Shown: positions 6,800 to 52,746 of the stretch, piece after piece
How positions within the stretch are numbered: position 1 is the first letter of the stretch
How the letters are laid out: every line of letters begins with the position of its first letter
Assembly: GCA_965218055.1 (NCBI GenBank)
Contig: CBDCKA010000002.1
Span: 1,056,695-1,120,694, forward strand
Source: Terriglobia bacterium
GTDB taxonomy: Bacteria; Acidobacteriota; Terriglobia; JAJPHL01; JAPKYU01
Length of the DNA stretch: 64,000 nucleotides
Direction: 5' to 3'
Made by a program: the position numbers and the translations under genes
Notes under the pieces: model-generated
Database searches by the model: none
What the model saw: the letters and a program-made list of their open reading frames with translations, nothing else
Told to the model about the DNA's origin: nothing

Positions 6800-7705
6800 T
6801 CAGAGCTCTTCAATGACAATCCTCCGCTGCTCGTCCAGCGGCACGCCAGCTTGCTCCAGCGTGGCCCGGAACCGTTCCATGCTGACCGGGCTGACCGGGA
6901 CGTAAGCCTTCAGCCAGTTGGTTTTGCTCCGGGGAACGATGGCATAGTCTCCCAGTGTCTCGGGAAGGCGCCACATCTGCTGGTGCCCGTAGGGCGCACG
7001 GAAATCCCCTGCGACAATCTCCCCCTCCCCGTTCAGGAAGACCAGCACTTCGAACCTAGCTGGCTCGGTCGCCGCGCCGTACTCGCGGGCGGATGAAAAG
7101 CGCTCCAGGGCAAAGTGGCGGCAACCGATCAGGAAGTCGCGAGTTAGCTCAGCCGCCTCCGTCCGGACAGGCCGTATGCGCCCGGCGGCCGGATGGCGCC
7201 GGATCACCTCCAGGGCCTTTTCCAGATGAAGTTCTCGCGGGCGCCCATAATCGTAGAGCCGATAGGTAACGTCGCTGAGCTCCTGCACCTCGCACAGCGT
7301 CAGTCCCGGTCCGATGGCATGGACGGTCCCGGCCGGGACGAAGATGAAGTCGCCTGGCTCAACCGTGAACCAGTTCAGTTCCTGCTCGATGGTTCCCGCG
7401 CGCACGTGTTCCCGAATTTCCTTGGGGGCCAAGTCCCGGCGAAAACCAACCGCCAGTTGGGCGCCGGGCTCGGTTTCCACAATGTACCAACATTCCGTCT
7501 TGCCAGCGCTGTTCTCGTGCTCGAGGGCGTAGGCGTCGCCGGGGTGAACCTGCACGGAAAGCTTGTCGCTGGTGAAGAGGAACTTCAGCAGCAGCGGAGG
7601 CGCCGGAAACCAGATTTCCCCCAGACGCCGCCCGTCGCGGAGCTGCCCCCAGAGTTTCTCGTAATGCACGGGCGCAATGGGGAAGGGCCGCCTCTCCTGT
7701 TCCAC
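6800..7705 (-). CDS. manA: mannose-6-phosphate isomerase, type I
   Basis: LSVQVHP, KTECWY, PAGTVHAIG, YRLYDY. Confidence 0.9.
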   Translation of the reverse strand: MEQERRPFPIAPVHYEKLWGQLRDGRRLGEIWFPAPPLLLKFLFTSDKLSVQVHPGDAYALEHENSAGKTECWYIVETEPGAQLAVGFRRDLAPKEIREHVRAGTIEQELNWFTVEPGDFIFVPAGTVHAIGPGLTLCEVQELSDVTYRLYDYGRPRELHLEKALEVIRRHPAAGRIRPVRTEAAELTRDFLIGCRHFALERFSSAREYGAATEPARFEVLVFLNGEGEIVAGDFRAPYGHQQMWRLPETLGDYAIVPRSKTNWLKAYVPVSPVSMERFRATLEQAGVPLDEQRRIVIEEL

Positions 7706-7713
7706 CGACCTAC

Positions 7714-7779
7714 CTCAGCTTGGCCTCAACCGGGCCTCAGCTTGGCCTCAACTGAGCCTCAACTGGGCCCCAGCTTGGC
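7714..7779. repeat. short tandem duplications at the aminotransferase stop
   Basis: ctcagcttggcctcaac repeated. Confidence 0.7.
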
Positions 7780-8940
7780 GAAGAACTGGCGCATCCGCTC
7801 CAGGCCCCGCTCGAGCTCGCCGATCGAGGTGGCGTAGGAAAGCCGCAGGTGTTCGGTGCTGCCGAAGGCCTCGCCCGGCACCACCGCCACCTGCGCTTCA
7901 CGGAGCAGGCGGCCAGTCAGATCCATCGTGGAGATCCCGCCGTTGATCTTCAGGTAGGCGCCCACGTTCGGGTACACGTAGAAAGCTCCCTGCGGCATCG
8001 GGCAACGGATGCCGGGGATGCTGCGCAGCCCCGGGACCACGAAATCGCGCCGCTTCCGATATTCCGCGCACATCTGACCGACCGAATCCTGGGGGCCCCG
8101 CAGCGCCTCCACGCCCGCCTTCTGCGCAATAGAAGTTGGGTTGGAGGTGCAGTGACTCTGCAGCTTCAGCATAGCCTGAATGATCTCGGCGCGAGCCAGC
8201 ACATAGCCCACCCGCCAGCCGGTCATGGCAAAGGTCTTCGAGAGCGAACCAATGACAATGGCTTTTTCGCGGGCACCGAGCAGTGTCCCCACCGAAAAGG
8301 GCCGGCCTTCGTAGACAAAGTGCGAGTAGCACTCGTCGGAAAGCAGCAGGACGCCGCGCGAGGCGGCCAGCTCGTAGAGCTGGCGAAACTCCTCGGGCCC
8401 GATCACCGCCCCGCTGGGGTTGTTGGGGGAGTTGAGAACCAGCAGGCGCGTGCGGGCCGTCAGAGCCTGCTCGACGGCTTCCTGCCGAAGGCGGTAGCCG
8501 GCCTCCTCATCGGTCGGCACCAGGACCGCGCGCCCACTCGCGTACTGGATAATGTCGCGGAAGCTGACCCAGAAGGGCACGGGCAGGATCACCTCGTCGC
8601 CGGGATTGACCAGCACCGAGATGGCGTTGAAGATGGCATGCTTGCCCCCCACGGTGACCAGCACCTCGGCAGGCGTGTATTCGGTGCCGAACTGCTGATG
8701 GTGCCAGTCGCAGATGGCCCGTTTCAATTCGGCTGTGCCGCCGGTCGGGGTGTACTTGGTAAAGCCCTCCTGGATGGCGCGGACCGCGGCCTGGCAGATA
8801 TTGTCGGGGGTGATGAAATCCGGCTCACCCGCGCCGAAATCCACTAGGTCGGCGCCCGCCGCCCGGGACCTTTCGGCCTCCGCCACCACGGCCTGCGTGG
8901 CGCTAACAGAAATTCGTGAGATACGTTCGGATAGTTGCAA
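7759..8940 (-). CDS. PLP-dependent aminotransferase class I (AspC-like)
   Basis: GEPDF, NSPNNPSG, SDECY, SKTFAMTGWRVGY. Confidence 0.92.
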   Translation of the reverse strand: MQLSERISRISVSATQAVVAEAERSRAAGADLVDFGAGEPDFITPDNICQAAVRAIQEGFTKYTPTGGTAELKRAICDWHHQQFGTEYTPAEVLVTVGGKHAIFNAISVLVNPGDEVILPVPFWVSFRDIIQYASGRAVLVPTDEEAGYRLRQEAVEQALTARTRLLVLNSPNNPSGAVIGPEEFRQLYELAASRGVLLLSDECYSHFVYEGRPFSVGTLLGAREKAIVIGSLSKTFAMTGWRVGYVLARAEIIQAMLKLQSHCTSNPTSIAQKAGVEALRGPQDSVGQMCAEYRKRRDFVVPGLRSIPGIRCPMPQGAFYVYPNVGAYLKINGGISTMDLTGRLLREAQVAVVPGEAFGSTEHLRLSYATSIGELERGLERMRQFFAKLGPS

Positions 8941-8969
8941 TGGGTCGCTCGATTCAGTCGGTGCCGGGA

Positions 8970-9467
8970 TCAGACCGGAACCTTGGTTTTCAGCCGCTCC
9001 ACCACGATGGGCGGCACCAGGTCCTTGATGTCGCCGCCCAGCAAGTGCACTTCCTTGACCAGCCGCGAGCTGATGTAGCTGTAGGTTTCGGCTGGCATCA
9101 TATACACGGTTTCCACCCGGGGGTTCAGCTTGCGGTTCATCAGGGCCATCTGCAACTCGTACTCGTAATCAGAGATGGCGCGAATGCCCCGCAGAATCAC
9201 GTTGGCGTCGCGCCGGGCGGCGTAGTCCACCAGCAGCCCGTCAAAAGATTCGACCAGGACCCGGCCCAGCGGCGCCGTCACTTGCTGCAGCATCTCCATC
9301 CGCTCTTCCAGAGAGAACAGGGGGCGCTTGTCCGGGTTGCGGAGCACGCCGACGATCAGCTCGTCGAAAATCTTGATGCCGCGCTCGATCAGGTCCAGGT
9401 GGCCGTTGGTCAGTGGGTCAAAGGACCCAGCATACACGGCCCGCCTGTAATTGGCCATCTCCCGCAT
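8970..9467 (-). CDS. coaD: pantetheine-phosphate adenylyltransferase
   Basis: YAGSFDPLTNGHLD, RGIRAISDYEYE, ISS. Confidence 0.95.
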   Translation of the reverse strand: MREMANYRRAVYAGSFDPLTNGHLDLIERGIKIFDELIVGVLRNPDKRPLFSLEERMEMLQQVTAPLGRVLVESFDGLLVDYAARRDANVILRGIRAISDYEYELQMALMNRKLNPRVETVYMMPAETYSYISSRLVKEVHLLGGDIKDLVPPIVVERLKTKVPV

Positions 9468-9646
9468 TCTAGGGGGCGGTGCGCACCGCCGTCAATGTCC
9501 GCCGAAGCCGGGCCAGCACGAGCGCTGAGAGCGTACGGTCCCGATTGTCAGTTCCTGGCGCCGGCGGGCCTGGACCCTTTCGTGGATGGAGAAGCTGCCG
9601 GGGGGCGAGATTGACGGGGATGGGCGAGGCGCAATAGACTGGGCTG

Positions 9647-11236
9647 GTGTGGTTGGTTGGGCATGCCGTGCTATGGCGGAGGCGTGCTGCGGCAGCCGTG
9701 GTGGCTCCGGCCTGCCTTCTTGCCTGCCTGCCGCTGCTGGCGCAACAGCCGGCTCCGGTCGACAGGAACCTGCGGCTGTTTGTGGTGATGGCCGCCATCA
9801 ATGCAGCCGGCTATGATGCAGGCCTCAATTCTGCGCACGCCAGCCCTGTGAGGCGGCTGGTTCGCCAGGAGGTCGCCGCGGCCCAGCCGGCCAGCCTGGA
9901 AGCACTGCGCGCCTTTTACGCGGCCCACCGCCATCCGGATTCGGTGCGCACCCTGAGCCAGTTTATTTCCTTCGGGCTTTTCCTTGGCGGGCCCCCGGAT
10001 TTCCCGTTCCGAGTGGGCGAGTCGGAATTGCCACCCGAGGTTTCGGCGCTGCGCGACCTGCGGCCTCTGCTGGCTGCCTTCTACCAGGAGGCCGATCTGG
10101 AAGCCCTGTGGGAGAAACACCAGCCCGCCTACGAGCAGGAACTGGAGCGCTACAATGAAGGTTTTGCGCAACTGATGCTGGAGGCCGGCGGCTACTTGCG
10201 CATCGTTTCTTCGGGTTTCCTGGGGCGCGATTTCTGGATTTACGTGGACCTGCTGGGAGCCCCCGGCCAAGTGAACGCGCGGGGCTTCGGGCGAGACTAC
10301 TATGTGGTGGTCAGCACTTCCCGGGAGCCGAAGCTGAAGGAAGTCCGCCACGGGTTGCTTCACTACCTGCTGGAGCCGCTGGCCCTCAAACACAGCGCGC
10401 TGGTGCGCAGCAAGGCGGACTTACAATGGTTTGCCGAAGGCGCGCATGCGCTGCCGCCCTGGTTGCGTAAAGATTTCCGGCTGTTGCTGAGCGAATCGCT
10501 GATCCGCGCCGTGGAGTTGCGGCTGGCTCGAAACTCCCCGGCCGCCAAGGAACAGCGCCTGCGCGAGATCTTGGAAGAAGGACATCTGCTGGCGCCGTAT
10601 TTCTACGAGGCGCTGGAGACGTTTGAACAGCAGGAGGCCGGCATGCGGATCTATTATCCGGAGATGCTCGAAAAGCTGGACGTGGTGCAGGAGCGAAAGC
10701 GTCTGGCCGGAGTCCGGTTCCGCGAACCCCCAGAGGCCGACGATCTGGGGCACCCAAGATGGTCTTCTTCTTCGCTGGCAGGCGCAACCGGCTCTCCCCG
10801 AAGCCCGTCAGAAGAAGAAGCGCTTCTGGCCCAGGCAGAGGATGCCATGGCCCGCCAGGATTTCGCTCAGGCCCGGCAGTTGTATCAAGTTACGCTGGAA
10901 AAGAACGGCGCTTTGCAGGCGCAAGCTGTCTATGGCCTGGCCCTGGTGGCCACCCAGGAAAGGAAACCGGAAGTGGCCAAGAGCTACTTCCAGCGCATCC
11001 TGCTGGTCAGCAAAGAGCCGCACCTGCTGGGGTGGTCGCATATCTACCTGGGGCGCATTTATGATATGGAGCGGAAGCGCGAGCTCGCAGTCGAACACTA
11101 CCGGCAAGCGCTGGAGACTCAGGGTGCGGAGCCGGCGACTCACCGGGCAGCCGAACGAGGCCTGCAGGTCCCGTTCCGCCGGGAGACGTCCCGCGAGCAA
11201 GGAAGGGAAAGCGGGAACAAAAATGGATCGTGCTAA
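9647..11236 (+). CDS. secreted protein with C-terminal TPRs
   Basis: signal-like N-terminus; TPR-like helices at the C-terminus. Confidence 0.75.
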   Translation: MWLVGHAVLWRRRAAAAVVAPACLLACLPLLAQQPAPVDRNLRLFVVMAAINAAGYDAGLNSAHASPVRRLVRQEVAAAQPASLEALRAFYAAHRHPDSVRTLSQFISFGLFLGGPPDFPFRVGESELPPEVSALRDLRPLLAAFYQEADLEALWEKHQPAYEQELERYNEGFAQLMLEAGGYLRIVSSGFLGRDFWIYVDLLGAPGQVNARGFGRDYYVVVSTSREPKLKEVRHGLLHYLLEPLALKHSALVRSKADLQWFAEGAHALPPWLRKDFRLLLSESLIRAVELRLARNSPAAKEQRLREILEEGHLLAPYFYEALETFEQQEAGMRIYYPEMLEKLDVVQERKRLAGVRFREPPEADDLGHPRWSSSSLAGATGSPRSPSEEEALLAQAEDAMARQDFAQARQLYQVTLEKNGALQAQAVYGLALVATQERKPEVAKSYFQRILLVSKEPHLLGWSHIYLGRIYDMERKRELAVEHYRQALETQGAEPATHRAAERGLQVPFRRETSREQGRESGNKNGSC

Positions 11237-11264
11237 CCACAGCGCGGAAGGAGAACAACACCCC

Positions 11265-12098
11265 ATGCCAAGGATGAAAATGACAACGGTGACCCTCGCC
11301 CTGGTGGTTGGTCTGCTTATCGCGATGGCTCCGGCCCAGGAGCCAGAGCAGACACCGGACACATTTGGCCTGCCCGCCGAGGAAACGCCAACCGGCAAGA
11401 AGCCACCCCAGCCCAAGACCGAGGAGGAGTATAGAGCGGCACAAGAGCTGAGCAACCTCTCCCTGAGCCCCGACCGGATGATCACCCTGGCCGTGGAATT
11501 TGTGCAACAGTTTCCGGACAGCGACTACAAAGGTTTAGCCTACCGCGCGGCAATGGAAGGCTACGGCGAAAAAAACAACGTTCCCAAGATGCGTGAGTTC
11601 GGCGAGAAGGCGCTCACAGAAGATCCGGACGACACCTGGGTCTTGGTCCGGCTGGCCACGGTCATACCGATGCGGACCCGGCCAACCGATCTGAACAAGA
11701 AAGAGAAGCTAAAGCAGGCCGAGGAGTACGCCAGGCACGCCCTGGCGGTCATTCCGAAGATGTCGAAGCCTAACCCGGAAATGTCAGACGCCGAATGGAA
11801 GAGTGGTCAAAACGACCTGCGCGGCGACAGTTACGCCGCGCTGGGCCATGTGGCCCAGATACGCGAACAGTATCCGGCGGCTGTGGACTTCTTCAAGAAG
11901 GCCATCGAACTTATGGCGAGCAAAGACGCCGTTGTGCATTTGCGCCTCGGGGTGACGTACCGGGCAATGAACGAATTAGAGCTGGCCCGCGACACGCTGA
12001 AACAGACGGTGGAGATCCAGAGAGACGGCATGGTCGGAAACCTGGCCGCCCAGCATTTGCAGCGGGTTGAAAAGTTGCTGGAGAAACAGAAGCAGTAG
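11265..12098 (+). CDS. secreted TPR protein
   Basis: GGAGA RBS, signal peptide, TPR-like repeats. Confidence 0.75.
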   Translation: MPRMKMTTVTLALVVGLLIAMAPAQEPEQTPDTFGLPAEETPTGKKPPQPKTEEEYRAAQELSNLSLSPDRMITLAVEFVQQFPDSDYKGLAYRAAMEGYGEKNNVPKMREFGEKALTEDPDDTWVLVRLATVIPMRTRPTDLNKKEKLKQAEEYARHALAVIPKMSKPNPEMSDAEWKSGQNDLRGDSYAALGHVAQIREQYPAAVDFFKKAIELMASKDAVVHLRLGVTYRAMNELELARDTLKQTVEIQRDGMVGNLAAQHLQRVEKLLEKQKQ

Positions 12099-12299
12099 AC
12101 TGACTGCGCACCGGCATCCGGCAATATCCGAAGCGGACACAGGGATTGGAGGAGTGCGAATCGTGGGAGGAAAGGAGTTGCTCCTCGCCGCCATCCACCT
12201 TGCGCACTGCACCAGTGCCCGAGGATGCTTCCGTTGCGGACGACCGGGCGGTGCTGGGTTCACCGGAGCCGCAGTCCCAGACCCGCAAGCGAAATCTAC

Positions 12300-13031
12300 A
12301 TGGGCGACCTGAGCCAATTGGAAAAGGCTATGGGGCATACATTTGCCCGGCGGGAACTGCTGCTGCGGGCTCTGACCCACAGCTCCCACAGCCACGAGCA
12401 CAGTGAGAGCGGCGTCTGCCACAACGAGCAGTTGGAGTTCCTTGGAGATGCGATTCTGGGATTTCTGGTCAGCCGGGAACTGGTGGAGCGCTTCCCGGAC
12501 TGCTCGGAAGGTCAGCTCTCAAAGATGAAAGCCCACCTGGTGAGCGCTTCGCACCTGTTTGCCATGGCCAGCCAGTTGCACCTGGGCGCGTTTCTGCAAC
12601 TGGGGCGGGGGGAGGAGAAGAGCGGCGGGCGTTACAAGCGGGCGCTGCTGGTGGACGCGCTGGAAGCGCTGATTGCAGCCCTCTACCTGGACGCTGGGCT
12701 GGAGAAGACGTGCAAACTGGTCCGCCGCTGGGTGCTCAGCCACGGGCTGGAAGGCGGAATTGATCAATTCCCCGTGACCGACTTCAAGTCGACGCTCCAG
12801 GAATACCTTCAAGCCGCGCACCTGCCGCCACCGCGCTACGTTGTGGTAGGCGAGCGTGGCCCGGAGCACCGCAAGACCTTTACCGTCGAAGTTCGGATCG
12901 GCAAGGAATTTATCTCCCAGGCCGAAGGTGCGACCAAGAAGGCCGCCGAGCAGGAAGCGGCCCGCGCCGCCTTGCTCCACTTCCAGCAACACACCGCACA
13001 GCTTGCCTCCTCGCCGGCTGCAGTAGGCTAA
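12300..13031 (+). CDS. rnc: ribonuclease III
   Basis: NEQLEFLGDAILG signature; C-terminal dsRBD. Confidence 0.95.
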   Translation: MGDLSQLEKAMGHTFARRELLLRALTHSSHSHEHSESGVCHNEQLEFLGDAILGFLVSRELVERFPDCSEGQLSKMKAHLVSASHLFAMASQLHLGAFLQLGRGEEKSGGRYKRALLVDALEALIAALYLDAGLEKTCKLVRRWVLSHGLEGGIDQFPVTDFKSTLQEYLQAAHLPPPRYVVVGERGPEHRKTFTVEVRIGKEFISQAEGATKKAAEQEAARAALLHFQQHTAQLASSPAAVG

Positions 13032-49283: not shown

Positions 49284-50393
49284 ATGTCATTTCGCGTGCT
49301 GATTCTGGTCTTGTTCCTTACCTTGCCAGCCGACTGGGCGGTGGCCGCTCAGGACGTCTGGAAGGGAGTGGGGAGGATCGTGGCGATCGGGGACGTCCAT
49401 GGAGACTATGACCAGTTTGTCGCTCTGCTTGACTCAGCCGGCCTCATCAACGCGAACCACGACTGGACCGGGGGAAAGACCCATCTGGTACAGACCGGCG
49501 ACGTCCTCGATCGGGGACCGCAGTCGCGCAAGGTAATGGACCTGTTGATGCGGTTGGAAGTGCAGGCCCGGAAGGCCGGGGGCTATGTGCACGCCCTGAT
49601 CGGTAATCACGAGGCGATGAATATCTACGGCGATCATCGCTATGTTTCACCGCAGGAGTATGCCGCATTTCGTGATGAAAAGTCGGAAAAGACGCGCGAT
49701 CACTTCTATAAACAGCATATTAAGGAGTTGAAGGGATCCCCTCCGCCCGAACGCAAAGAGTGGGAGTCTCGGCATCCGCTGGGATATTTCGAGCACCGTT
49801 ACCATTTCGGGCCCAACGGGAAATACGGAAAGTGGATTCGGCGTCACAACACCGTGATTAAGATTAACGACACGATCTTTTTGCACGGCGGGATCAGCCC
49901 GAAATACGCAAACCATTCCATCCGCCGAATCAATGACCGGGTTCGCAAGGAACTCAAAGACATGAGGAAGCTCCGGGGTGGAATCGTGACGGATGAGGAA
50001 GGGCCCTTGTGGTACAGGGGACTGGCGCGAACAGCTGAGAAGGACCTGGAGTCCCATCTGGAGACGGTCCTTAGTAACTACGGTTGCGAGAGAATCGTCG
50101 TGGCCCACGCGAAAGTGCCCGGGGCGGTCATGCCCCGATTTGGAGGTCGCGTCATCTTGATCGAGGTAGGCATGTCGGCACCCAATGGCGGGCGCCTGGC
50201 CTGTTTGCTGATTGAGAAGAACCGAGCCTACGCCTTGCACCGGGGGAAGAAGCTCGAGCTGCCAAAGGATTCCGGCACAGGCTTGCTCAACTACCTAAAA
50301 CGGGCCGCCGCCTTGGACCCGGCACCCTCGCCGCTGCAAGCAACGATTCGGCAGCTTGAAGCCCAGTTGGCCGTCCCCGCCGCAAACCAGTAG
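49284..50393 (+). CDS. secreted metallophosphoesterase (Shewanella-like PPP phosphatase)
   Basis: signal peptide; GDVHG, GDVLDRG, GNHE, HGG, GPLWYRG. Confidence 0.88.
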   Translation: MSFRVLILVLFLTLPADWAVAAQDVWKGVGRIVAIGDVHGDYDQFVALLDSAGLINANHDWTGGKTHLVQTGDVLDRGPQSRKVMDLLMRLEVQARKAGGYVHALIGNHEAMNIYGDHRYVSPQEYAAFRDEKSEKTRDHFYKQHIKELKGSPPPERKEWESRHPLGYFEHRYHFGPNGKYGKWIRRHNTVIKINDTIFLHGGISPKYANHSIRRINDRVRKELKDMRKLRGGIVTDEEGPLWYRGLARTAEKDLESHLETVLSNYGCERIVVAHAKVPGAVMPRFGGRVILIEVGMSAPNGGRLACLLIEKNRAYALHRGKKLELPKDSGTGLLNYLKRAAALDPAPSPLQATIRQLEAQLAVPAANQ

Positions 50394-50419
50394 CCAATCC
50401 AGCCTGGCTCCCATCAGGG

Positions 50420-51259
50420 TCACTGCCGTGGCGGGGAGTCGAAAAGAACGGCGTGCTCACCCTTTTGGGCAACGGCCTTGTCGAAAAACTCGACGATCCG
50501 ATCGCGCCGCGCCAGCAATGCCTTAATCTGCGCCTTACTGAGATAGGGACGAAGTTCCCTGGCCAGCACTTCGTAGTTTAACTTGCGCATCGCGGCCAGC
50601 AGCCGCCGGTCGCATTTGACCAAGTCTCCCGGAGTTTTCAGTGTCTTGTGAAGGCGGAATGCACGGGTGTGATCGATCATCCAAATCTGCCAGTCGTTCG
50701 TGATCAACACGTTGCCGAAACTCCGATCGGTGTTGTAAATCAACTCGTCAAACACTCGCCAGCAGAACACCTGCTTGTTCAAGTTCGATCGCTGCGCGTG
50801 CGGCACTTGGGTTTTTTCATTCCACTGCTTCTGGGTCATCAGTAGCACGTCATCGACCCACCAGGTGACTGCCGCGAAGTCCCCGGCGACCGTCCGCTCC
50901 ACCGACACCGGCACCATCCCCAAGCCCAAAAGCTTATCCAGCCGGTAGGCGGCGATGTTGTACTTATAACTGTCAGTAAAGTTAATTTCTTTGCCCAGCG
51001 GAGTTGGGTAGATGACCTTGTAGATATCTACTGGCTGGATTTGAGCGTCGTGCGTCGTTCGCCCATCCGCTAGCGTGGCCCTGGAAGGGCGCGTGGACCC
51101 GCTGGTCTCGCGCTTCTTTTTGATGCGCGCCGTCCGCAAGAACTCCTCCTGTTGCTCCTGGGTAAGCGTATCCCGGCTGGGTGGCGTCTGGGCAAAGCCG
51201 AGCGCCGTTAGGCTCAACACAAGACTCAAGGCCAAGCAATTTCTAGATAACCTGTTCAT
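50420..51259 (-). CDS. secreted atypical kinase-like protein (FAM20C/PI4K-like fold)
   Basis: signal peptide; IAAYRLDKLLGLGMVPVSVER, FDELIYNTDRSFGN, IDHTRAF. Confidence 0.7.
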   Translation of the reverse strand: MNRLSRNCLALSLVLSLTALGFAQTPPSRDTLTQEQQEEFLRTARIKKKRETSGSTRPSRATLADGRTTHDAQIQPVDIYKVIYPTPLGKEINFTDSYKYNIAAYRLDKLLGLGMVPVSVERTVAGDFAAVTWWVDDVLLMTQKQWNEKTQVPHAQRSNLNKQVFCWRVFDELIYNTDRSFGNVLITNDWQIWMIDHTRAFRLHKTLKTPGDLVKCDRRLLAAMRKLNYEVLARELRPYLSKAQIKALLARRDRIVEFFDKAVAQKGEHAVLFDSPPRQ

Positions 51260-51277
51260 GACGTTTCCCTCCGTTCG

Positions 51278-51407
51278 TTGCCTGGAGAAAGCCTACGCGG
51301 AGCGCGTCCCCACCATGGCTCATCTCAGGGCAGAACCGAGTTGGGACGACCTGCGCGGCGACCCGCGCTTCCAGGACCTGCTGCGCCGCATGAACCTCCC
51401 ACAGTAA
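51278..51407 (+). pseudogene. C-terminal fragment of a TPR-containing kinase/regulator-type protein
   Basis: LEKAYAER...EPSWDDLRGDPRFQDLLRRMNLP*. Confidence 0.6.
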
Positions 51408-51454
51408 GCCTGAGACTCCCTCCGGTGCCCGGAATTCTCGGCCTATTATTTGGT

Positions 51455-52746
51455 CTAGTCCCCCAGGTCCAGAGCCACGATGCTCTTTCTGTCGCGGACG
51501 TAGAGGGTCCTGCCGGCCAGCGAGGGTGCTGTCCAGCAGTTTTTCTCCAGCAAATCCACTTTGGAGAGAACTTTGAGGCCCTCGGGGGAGAGTGTGGCAA
51601 GGGCGAGGCGGCCGTCCTCATCCAGAATGATGAGCTTTCCGTTGGCGTAAACCAAGTTGGCCTTGGCAAAACTGCGATCCCGCCAGGCGATTTTCCGGTG
51701 CGCACATTGAGGGCCGTGATGAAGGCCGGTCCAAAGTCGCCACTGGAGCCGTACACGTAGTCGCCGACCCGCACGATGCTCCCGATGTGCACCCGCATCT
51801 GGTTGGTGTGCCACACTTCCTTAGCCACGGTTCCACCGTCCGACTTGCTCAGCTTGATGAGGCGGCTCCCTCCGTCGTATGCCGAGGAGCAAAACAAGAG
51901 GTTGCCTTCCCCCCACACAGGCATGCTGATGTTCAGGCCATTATTGATCTGGTGGGGGATCGTCCAAATCAGGTCGCCGTTGCCGGGGTCCAGACCAGCG
52001 ACCTGCTTCGCCATGAACACCACCAGCTGATCCTGGCCTGCGAAGTGGATCAACACGGGAGAGGAAGGAGAATTCGAGAAACTCTGCTTTTTCCAGGCCA
52101 TGGCCCCGTCCGTCTGCCGGAAAGCCATGATGGCGTTGCCCCCGCCCCCGGTTTGCAGGATCACCGTGTCCTGGTAGGCGATGGGGCTACAGGAGAAACC
52201 GCGGTTCCTTCGGTCGATATTGAACTCCTGGTAGAGGTCGTGGAACCATTCCATCTTCCCGGTTTTTTTATCAAGCGCGAAGAACTTCCCGGTGACTCCC
52301 ACTGTGAACACACGCGCGCCTGCCACCAGCGGGGTGGAGTGAGGGCCGGGACCGAGCTTCATGTCCATCGAGCTGAGAAAGGGTGCTGCGTAGGGGTGCT
52401 CCCAGAGCGTCTTGCCGGTCGCGGCGTCCAAGGCGATGACGACCTCTTGCTCCCCCTTGCGATACATAGTGAAGAGGGTGCCGTCGTCCACAGCGATGCC
52501 GGAGTAACCCTCCCCCAACTGGCGGCTCCAGAGACGGCGCGGGCCGTCCGGCGGCCAGGAGGATGCCAAGCGCTCGGAATCGGTCCTGAAGTTGCGGTGG
52601 GGCCCGCCGAACTGCGGCCAGTCGGCAGCGGCGGCGCACAGGGTCAGGGCGGCCCAGCTCAGGGCGATTTCAACGCACAGACACAGAGCGCGCGGAGATA
52701 CACCGTAGACCCATGCAGCTCGTCTCATCAACCACCTCCTCTGCAA
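51455..52746 (-). CDS. PQQ-binding-like beta-propeller protein, frameshifted near 51692
   Basis: DWPQFGGP...; C-terminus WTAPSLAGRTLYVRD lies in another frame after an A4 run. Confidence 0.8.

Follow-up and report, generated by a model that had tools for sequence, protein, structure and literature searches.

A possible periplasmic phosphorylation module in Acidobacteriota, suggested by the convergent genes of a Shewanella-like phosphatase and a kinase-like protein with a Fam20 fold that both have predicted export signals

The periplasm is held to be free of ATP, and kinases are not expected there. Kinase folds that hold ATP in an inverted orientation are known besides Fam20A, and the IDxG motif is part of the definition of the Shewanella-like (SLP) phosphatases. 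In the Fam20 proteins, a change to Gln at the position of E306 inactivates Fam20A (PMC4421793), and catalysis has been reported to depend on the beta-3 lysine or on another lysine that substitutes for it (PMC4718504). The plant phosphatase SLP2 resides in the mitochondrial intermembrane space (PMC8020409), so that, like an exported bacterial phosphatase, it lies outside the cytosol. The nucleotide carriers with HEAT repeats (NTT-HEAT) have no characterised substrate (PMC5381601). Our search of the literature, which covered mainly listings and abstracts and few subscription papers, returned no bacterial exported Fam20-like kinase, no gene trio such as the one discussed here, and no described bacterial counterpart of this three-part system. 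In PMC7948968, the word stem "bacteri" occurs once, within a reference.

We analysed a stretch of 64,000 nucleotides (hereafter, the window) from the genome of a Terriglobia bacterium (contig CBDCKA010000002.1, positions 1,056,695 to 1,120,694). This genome has 4.28 Mb and is 97.8% complete. The window encodes a convergent pair of genes whose named relatives are mostly from Acidobacteriota: an SLP metallophosphatase of the PPP family with 369 aa (49284..50393, plus strand) and a Fam20-fold kinase-like protein with 279 aa (50420..51259, minus strand). Both reading frames had been reported by the initial annotation, and all the motifs it quoted are present in their translations. The convergent stops are 26 bp apart (50394..50419), and the spacer between them was rejected as a dispersed repeat, as it has one copy in the genome. 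The junction between the two genes is bridged by contigs of independent sequencing runs (one of run X5 spans 50283-50989 with 1 difference), and the arrangement is therefore not an assembly error, although some of these runs may be of the source sample itself. One RNA run has a 254-base contig matching the phosphatase, which is no proof of expression. A scan for promoters found 0 sites (0.7 in shuffled sequences), and one for terminators found 1 (2.5 in shuffled sequences).

The phosphatase matches PF00149 of Pfam (E 1.4e-12), and a phmmer search relates it to the Shewanella cold-active protein-tyrosine phosphatase PPI (1v73, E 2.3e-41). Its AF2 model (pLDDT 88.5) superposes on 1v73 with Z 35.2 and rmsd 2.2 over 268 aligned residues, the next match having Z 21.4, in agreement with the Shewanella-like type originally proposed. 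The metal and catalytic motifs of the SLP phosphatases (GDxHG, GDxxDRG, GNHE, HGG, and H) are all present, the translation reading GDVHG, GDVLDRG, GNHE, LHGG, VVAHAK, and IEVGM. The residues D37, H39, D73, R77, N108, H109, H201, and H275 are intact and invariant in 40 aligned sequences. The phosphatase is likely to be active. The IDxG motif is IEVG in this copy, which therefore departs from the definition; since the position (D294E) is Asp in 115 of 119 relatives, the subfamily as a whole has the motif and the copy in the window is a variant. Similarly, the residue changed in T276A is Thr in 114 of 119 relatives. Among the seven closest relatives inspected, IEVG is found in two and AHA in none. 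The variants AHA and IEVG singled out by the initial annotation are thus real, but it gave them too much weight: we rejected them as the mark of a new type of phosphatase, because they are rare among relatives and reflect local drift.

Searches with the single sequence of the kinase-like protein were insignificant (HipA_2 of Pfam, E 0.033; PDB, E 0.58). It has no match to PF06702, and it scores 45.6 bits against TIGR03843, below the cut-off of 172.4; one relative (P0275) is above the cut-off of PF06702, with 29.4 bits. Profiles place the family more clearly: one made of 40 sequences retrieves Fam20A (E 4e-7), and a broader profile of 32 rows, which include two duplicates, retrieves Fam20A (E 1.2e-11), Fam20C (E 6.9e-7), and the Fam20 of Hydra (E 5e-6). 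The AlphaFold model (pLDDT 81.7, low at residues 1-29) has Fam20 as its top match in both Foldseek and VIA (VIA Z 19.2, 18.8, and 17.9), with the best superposition covering 238 aligned residues (Z 19.2, rmsd 4.4). It is followed by PI4K type II (Z 17.6), CtkA (15.2), the actin-fragmin kinase (12.4), HipA (11.5), and CotH (11.4). These five belong to the same atypical kinase branch and score lower than Fam20, and to our knowledge none of them has both an NTT carrier and an exported phosphatase as partners. The kinase fold and the parallel with Fam20 drawn at first sight thus hold, with Fam20 ahead of both PI4K and CotH. The translation includes AQIQP, YNIAAYRLDKLL..VPVSVER, FDELIYNTDR..N, and IDHTRAF. 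By sequence and model, the protein appears to resemble a Fam20-type secreted kinase, yet we have not placed it as a member of Fam20, because it lacks both the ion pair described below and a match to PF06702. The family is large: one search gave 3,406 proteins at E ≤0.001 (among 5,201 candidates), and another gave 996 clusters (50% identity) at E ≤1e-30. In the Atlas, the matches are first to clusters of Acidobacteriota and then to clusters with 12% PF00454 or 22% PF06702.

We assessed export by requiring that the best 12-mer before the domain had a mean Kyte-Doolittle hydrophobicity of at least 2.0. Both N-termini pass this test (2.85 for the phosphatase and 2.36 for the kinase-like protein), as do those of 115 of the 119 testable phosphatases and 105 of the 117 testable kinases (120 of each), whereas the control windows from mature regions pass in 0.9% and 0% of the cases, respectively. 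This agrees with the signal peptides claimed initially and extends signal-peptide-like N-termini to most relatives. The predicted Sec signal peptides cover residues 1-22 of the phosphatase (49284..49349, plus strand; cleavage after VAA, placed by eye) and residues 1-23 of the kinase-like protein (51191..51259, minus strand; cleavage after GFA, also by eye), the latter within the region of low pLDDT. In 8 of 34 long homologues (P0124-P0128 and P0141-P0143), the kinase-like domain is the C-terminal part of a Ser/Thr kinase, and in four of these eight a clear transmembrane segment lies between the two, which fits an outside location of the kinase-like domain. Such fusions would place a kinase fold both inside and outside the membrane. 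We infer that the phosphatase and the kinase-like protein are periplasmic. Further fusions of the kinase domain (P0122, P0144, P0146, P0130, and P0145) include penicillin amidase, FN3/PEGA/LRR, and TPR domains, although some may be read-through artefacts.

The association between the two families is strong and is visible in fusions, in co-occurrence, and in adjacency. Among the 34 long homologues, 19 are fusions of the same type of phosphatase with the kinase domain (18 with the phosphatase first and one with the kinase first; one of the 19 is a weak match, E 5.9e-5). We surveyed 161 genomes drawn from across the phylum: both families are present in 40, the kinase alone in two, and the phosphatase alone in one, where the match is weak and partial; the other 118 lack both. 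The two are within 5 kb of each other in 24 of these genomes, where roughly 0.35 would be expected by chance. These tallies overstate the association, because the surveyed genomes include kin and are not independent, and we attach no weight to P values. Among 31 near genomes, 10 have both, two the phosphatase only, one the kinase only, and 18 neither. The survey of co-occurrence and fusion proposed by the initial annotation hence came out in favour of a linkage. Most of the 80 best kinase loci have no partner nearby: the phosphatase was found in eight with tblastn and nine with the profile, in convergent and tandem layouts, and the carrier described next in 11. Among 80 loci anchored on the phosphatase in metagenomes, which are mostly short, 11 have the kinase. 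The kinase has expanded in some genomes, which have up to 11 copies of it and no more than one or two of the phosphatase.

Clustering of the neighbouring reading frames revealed a third component, a membrane protein of 900 aa present in 15 of 94 kinase loci. It consists of a TLC/NTT domain and HEAT repeats and is often followed by a gene for a cNMP-binding protein. The genome of the window has one such carrier (PF03219 and HEAT; G000:C2:2413066-2415885), adjacent to a cNBD gene and 1.3 Mb from the pair. The carrier occurs in 71 of the 161 genomes: all 42 with the kinase, all 41 with the phosphatase, and 29 of the 119 without the kinase. Within 5 kb, and among the matches listed, it accompanies the phosphatase in at least 18 genomes, the kinase in at least 14, and either in at least 19, and all three are linked in at least 15; these are lower bounds, because the list lacks twenty carrier matches and the second halves of split matches were dropped. 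The rough chance expectation for such pairwise links is 0.3-0.9 genomes. In two genomes of the same genus (G001 and G002), a second paralogue of the kinase adjoins the carrier and is missing at the matching site in the genome of the window. A cluster of the kinase, a histidine kinase, the NTT-HEAT carrier, a cNMP protein, and a second histidine kinase recurs in five loci (L007, L014, L029, L037, and L040, at about 6800-12800), and one cluster (G073:C23:41350-48883) has the carrier, the phosphatase, and five tandem Lys/Glu kinase paralogues.

Other neighbours are less telling. Histidine kinases and Ser/Thr kinases are found in 17 and 16 of the 94 loci, and we did not count them as linked because these families are abundant and there was no control. 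Four loci (L014, L043, L064, and L072) have an Omp85-type barrel and an exported protein of 587 aa. One small exported family with no Pfam match lies directly behind the kinase in seven loci (L002, L009, L010, L013, L035, L063, and L079), and a second, equally devoid of Pfam matches, lies mostly just before it in eight (L002, L012, L021, L063, L065, L073, L074, and L079). We rejected them as general substrates because they have no Pfam match, no similarity to the kinase, and no copy in the genome of the window; they could possibly be lineage-specific substrates. The neighbours examined included no gene for a substrate.

What we observed (the two folds with their conserved residues, N-termini that are hydrophobic, and genes that are fused, adjacent, or found together) is the basis for a three-part module in which the phosphatase, the Fam20-fold protein, and the NTT-HEAT carrier would cycle the phosphorylation of a target in the envelope. 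We regard the chances of this explanation as about even. The carrier would swap cytoplasmic ATP for periplasmic ADP, as an NTP/NDP exchanger with the cytoplasm as the source of ATP, and the HEAT arm and the partner with the cNMP domain would gate it. The kinase-like protein would transfer phosphate to a protein or glycan of the envelope, and the exported phosphatase would remove it from the same target. ATP as the cargo, export as its direction, the catalytic activity, and the protein or glycan nature of the substrate are the conjectural parts of this scheme. The initial annotation had proposed a writer and an eraser of extracytoplasmic phosphorylation and had noted that the periplasm is thought to be poor in ATP. 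Our results support this interpretation, with the two functions as presumptive ones, and the carrier, which the annotation had missed, could supply ATP and therefore addresses the problem it raised. The broader proposal, that free-living Acidobacteriota run reversible periplasmic phosphorylation on ATP exported through an NTT carrier gated by cyclic nucleotides, with one clade using a Gln/Asn kinase, is tentative and somewhat less probable than not.

Several observations on the carrier count against this explanation. It is present in 29 genomes without the kinase, and its relatives score 29-66 bits against the NTP/NDP-exchanger family TIGR00769 of NCBIfam, far below the cut-off of 387. The NTTs that have been characterised import nucleotides (PMC5381601), which would suit a role in scavenging, where the carrier takes up nucleotides, phosphate is released by the exported phosphatase, and the kinase-fold protein assists in the periplasm with nucleotide binding or salvage. 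Exported hydrolases are indeed found nearby, at low frequency (a sulfatase in 6 and a purple-acid-type phosphatase in 4 of the 94 loci). We consider scavenging improbable, because it leaves unexplained the intact kinase active site of most members, their expansion to up to 11 copies, and the PPP type of the phosphatase.

The most delicate issue concerns the active site of the kinase-like protein. Using relatives that keep AxFK and YE/EIAAY, we mapped Q75 and N101 to the positions of the Lys and the Glu of the kinase fold. In the profile alignment, these family motifs align with AMFKP/LFKP and NAEIAAF of Fam20A/C, so that Q75 and N101 correspond to K285 and E311 of Fam20 (numbering from PMC4421793). 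The Lys285/Glu311 ion pair is thus absent from the protein of the window, as the initial annotation had suspected, whereas Lys and Glu are present in 33 of 107 rows of the family. The most frequent types among these rows are Arg/Glu (36), Lys/Glu (33), and Gln/Asn (17), so that a basic and an acidic residue are retained in the majority, in favour of the three-part module. The rows are the kinase copies of the phylum survey plus 14 loci from near genomes, and leave out all copies of three genomes (G093, G105, and G183) and 8 of the 11 copies of a fourth (G117). The Gln/Asn type forms one clade with 21 of the 106 tips of the tree (FastTree support 0.992, midpoint root), in which the protein of the window is counted twice.

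This clade is conserved in its own way. It keeps D96, D178, N183, D196, and R199 in 19 of 19 sequences, and the clade-specific H70, W133, and E91 are each found in all 19; Q132, present in 73 of 86 sequences outside the clade, has been lost. In the family as a whole, 117 of 120 sequences have Arg or Lys at the position of R60, which belongs to the glycine-rich region, and D178 and D196 are found in 120 of 120, aligned with the NMDR (catalytic Asp458) and LDN (metal-binding Asp478) motifs of Fam20. D96 is also invariant and lies by count five residues before N101, like E306 of Fam20C, although the HMM alignments have a gap there. Of the 80 best genome loci, 11 are linked to the carrier, and every one of these is of the Gln/Asn type, which accounts for 8 of the 19 phosphatase-kinase fusions and for none of the 14 fusions of the phylum rows. 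In the three-part module, this clade would catalyse through a rebuilt pocket of R60, H70, and W133 with the acids D96, D178, and D196. Against this, Q75 is not basic, while the beta-3 lysine or a substitute lysine is reported as required.

Alternatively, the Lys/Glu members could be kinases and the Gln/Asn clade a periplasmic nucleotide-binding pseudokinase that acts as a sensor or as an allosteric regulator of the phosphatase. The joint loss of both residues of the ion pair in a single clade fits this reading, as do the absence of the catalytic-loop arginine from some clade members, the sensor-like position of the domain as the outer part of receptor-type Ser/Thr kinases, and the precedent of Fam20A, a secreted pseudokinase that binds ATP (PMC4718504, PMC4421793). 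It is harder to reconcile with the invariance in the clade of the three acidic residues and N183, and it would leave the phosphatase without a matching writer. Moreover, among the copies fetched, 14 of the 16 genomes with a member of the clade have no other type of kinase, and the broad profile finds one member of the family in the 97.8% complete genome of the window (next match, E 1.9). We therefore regard this alternative as unlikely, if still a serious contender. The pseudokinase partner suggested by the initial annotation is weakened in its Fam20A form because the genome lacks an active paralogue, and stays a candidate as a nucleotide-binding regulator of the phosphatase. The clade keeps the three acids and its link to the carrier, and most genomes that have it have no other type; a working remodelled enzyme is therefore probably a better reading of the sequences than an activator of a paralogue.

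A remodelled pocket might also perform other chemistry, such as nucleotide hydrolysis, nucleotidyl transfer, or the use of another phosphate donor, with the phosphatase reversing or finishing the reaction. The coordinated gains of H70, W133, and E91 with the loss of Q132 speak for remodelling rather than decay, and Fam20A provides an example of a kinase fold with inverted ATP (PMC7948968). Gln/Asn and Lys/Glu members, however, share the same partners, and we give other chemistry a slim chance.

The pair in the window has a particular history. In three genomes of the same genus, the phosphatase reads straight into the next gene, and they lack a block of 1038 bp that contains the kinase together with the remnant of another gene (joint at 50412-51451); the adjacency is hence missing in all three. 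The joined form is also present in three sequencing runs. The remnant (51282..51407, plus strand) is part of this block in blastn comparisons and is likely the orphan 3' end of a multicopy gene, given its tblastx matches elsewhere in the genome; we take it to resemble the C-terminus of acidobacterial proteins of the kinase/TPR type. One of the genomes of the genus (G003) keeps the spacer, which is single-copy in the genome of the window, both behind its phosphatase and behind its separated kinase, with the stop codon of the phosphatase included, which suggests that the convergent arrangement came first and was later split or lost in the other genomes. Next to the pair, a gene for a PQQ-type beta-propeller is present as two overlapping frames (51325-52746 and 51455-51814, both on the minus strand), as if a frameshift had occurred towards the 3' end of the gene. 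On another contig, 67 bp (G000:C1:994291-994357) match the beginning of the kinase gene at 91% identity, and the rest of the gene is absent; this is likely the remnant of a second copy.

These features raise the question of whether the two genes of the window are decaying, or adjacent by chance, and have no present function. Several conserved positions of the kinase carry private substitutions (N180S, against 118 of 120 sequences, R145Q, and W160L), the kinase is absent from the site in the three genomes of the genus, and a gene scar adjoins it. The pairwise dN/dS is also raised: 0.57 for the kinase (one pair, 233 codons) and 0.37-0.39 for the phosphatase, against 0.18 for leuA, 0.13 for leuB, and 0.19 for the carrier. 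Selection on the pair thus looks looser than on these genes, as far as such comparisons tell. Yet both frames are intact, the metal ligands are kept, dN/dS is below 1 (in single pairwise estimates), and the carrier-linked paralogues of G001 and G002 also have a raised value (0.46). Decay would concern the copy in the window and not the family, and we find it very improbable. The looser selection means, therefore, that a relative may be a better protein for tests.

If the three-part module is correct, a conserved exported kinase with its phosphatase and nucleotide carrier would overturn the view of an ATP-free periplasm for a major uncultured phylum. The NTT-HEAT carriers, which have lacked characterisation since 2017, would for the first time have a function that can be tested, and the module, as a counterpart of the Golgi Fam20 system, would serve as a minimal bacterial model of how Fam20 kinases arose. 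The Gln/Asn clade poses the further question of whether a working kinase can do without the residue that is most conserved in its fold. Both the module and this question can be tested with small soluble proteins.

The comparison with known systems shows what is shared and what is distinctive. The carrier has the same architecture, with an adjacent cNBD gene, as the NTT-HEAT and NTT-HEAT-cNBD carriers of Major, Embley and Williams 2017 (PMC5381601), for which the available part of that article states no function and does not mention exported kinases or phosphatases as linked genes. The phosphatase shares its metal ligands with the Shewanella PPI and the SLP phosphatases (1v73), and differs from 1v73 by an insert of ~50 aa after GNHE and a C-terminal helical extension, and from these phosphatases in general in that its subfamily tracks a kinase almost one to one. 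Fam20A is, like the protein of the window (whose export is predicted), an exported kinase fold without canonical residues. It keeps the ion pair and has lost the metal-binding Glu (Q258; PMC4421793), whereas the protein of the window has the reverse pattern, in a genome without an active paralogue. The best match of the fold is with the Fam20 kinases, such as the Golgi casein kinase Fam20C and the xylose kinase Fam20B (PDB 5xom, 5yh0, and 4kqa), with which the protein has in common the EIAAxxLDxxL..VP, NxDR, and D-x-x-R-x-F motifs and probably also export and an acid at the position of E306. In contrast to them, it is bacterial, minimal (~255 aa when mature), without a match to PF06702, and has Gln/Asn for Lys/Glu, and its family is associated, by fusion or by gene linkage, with a phosphatase and a nucleotide carrier.
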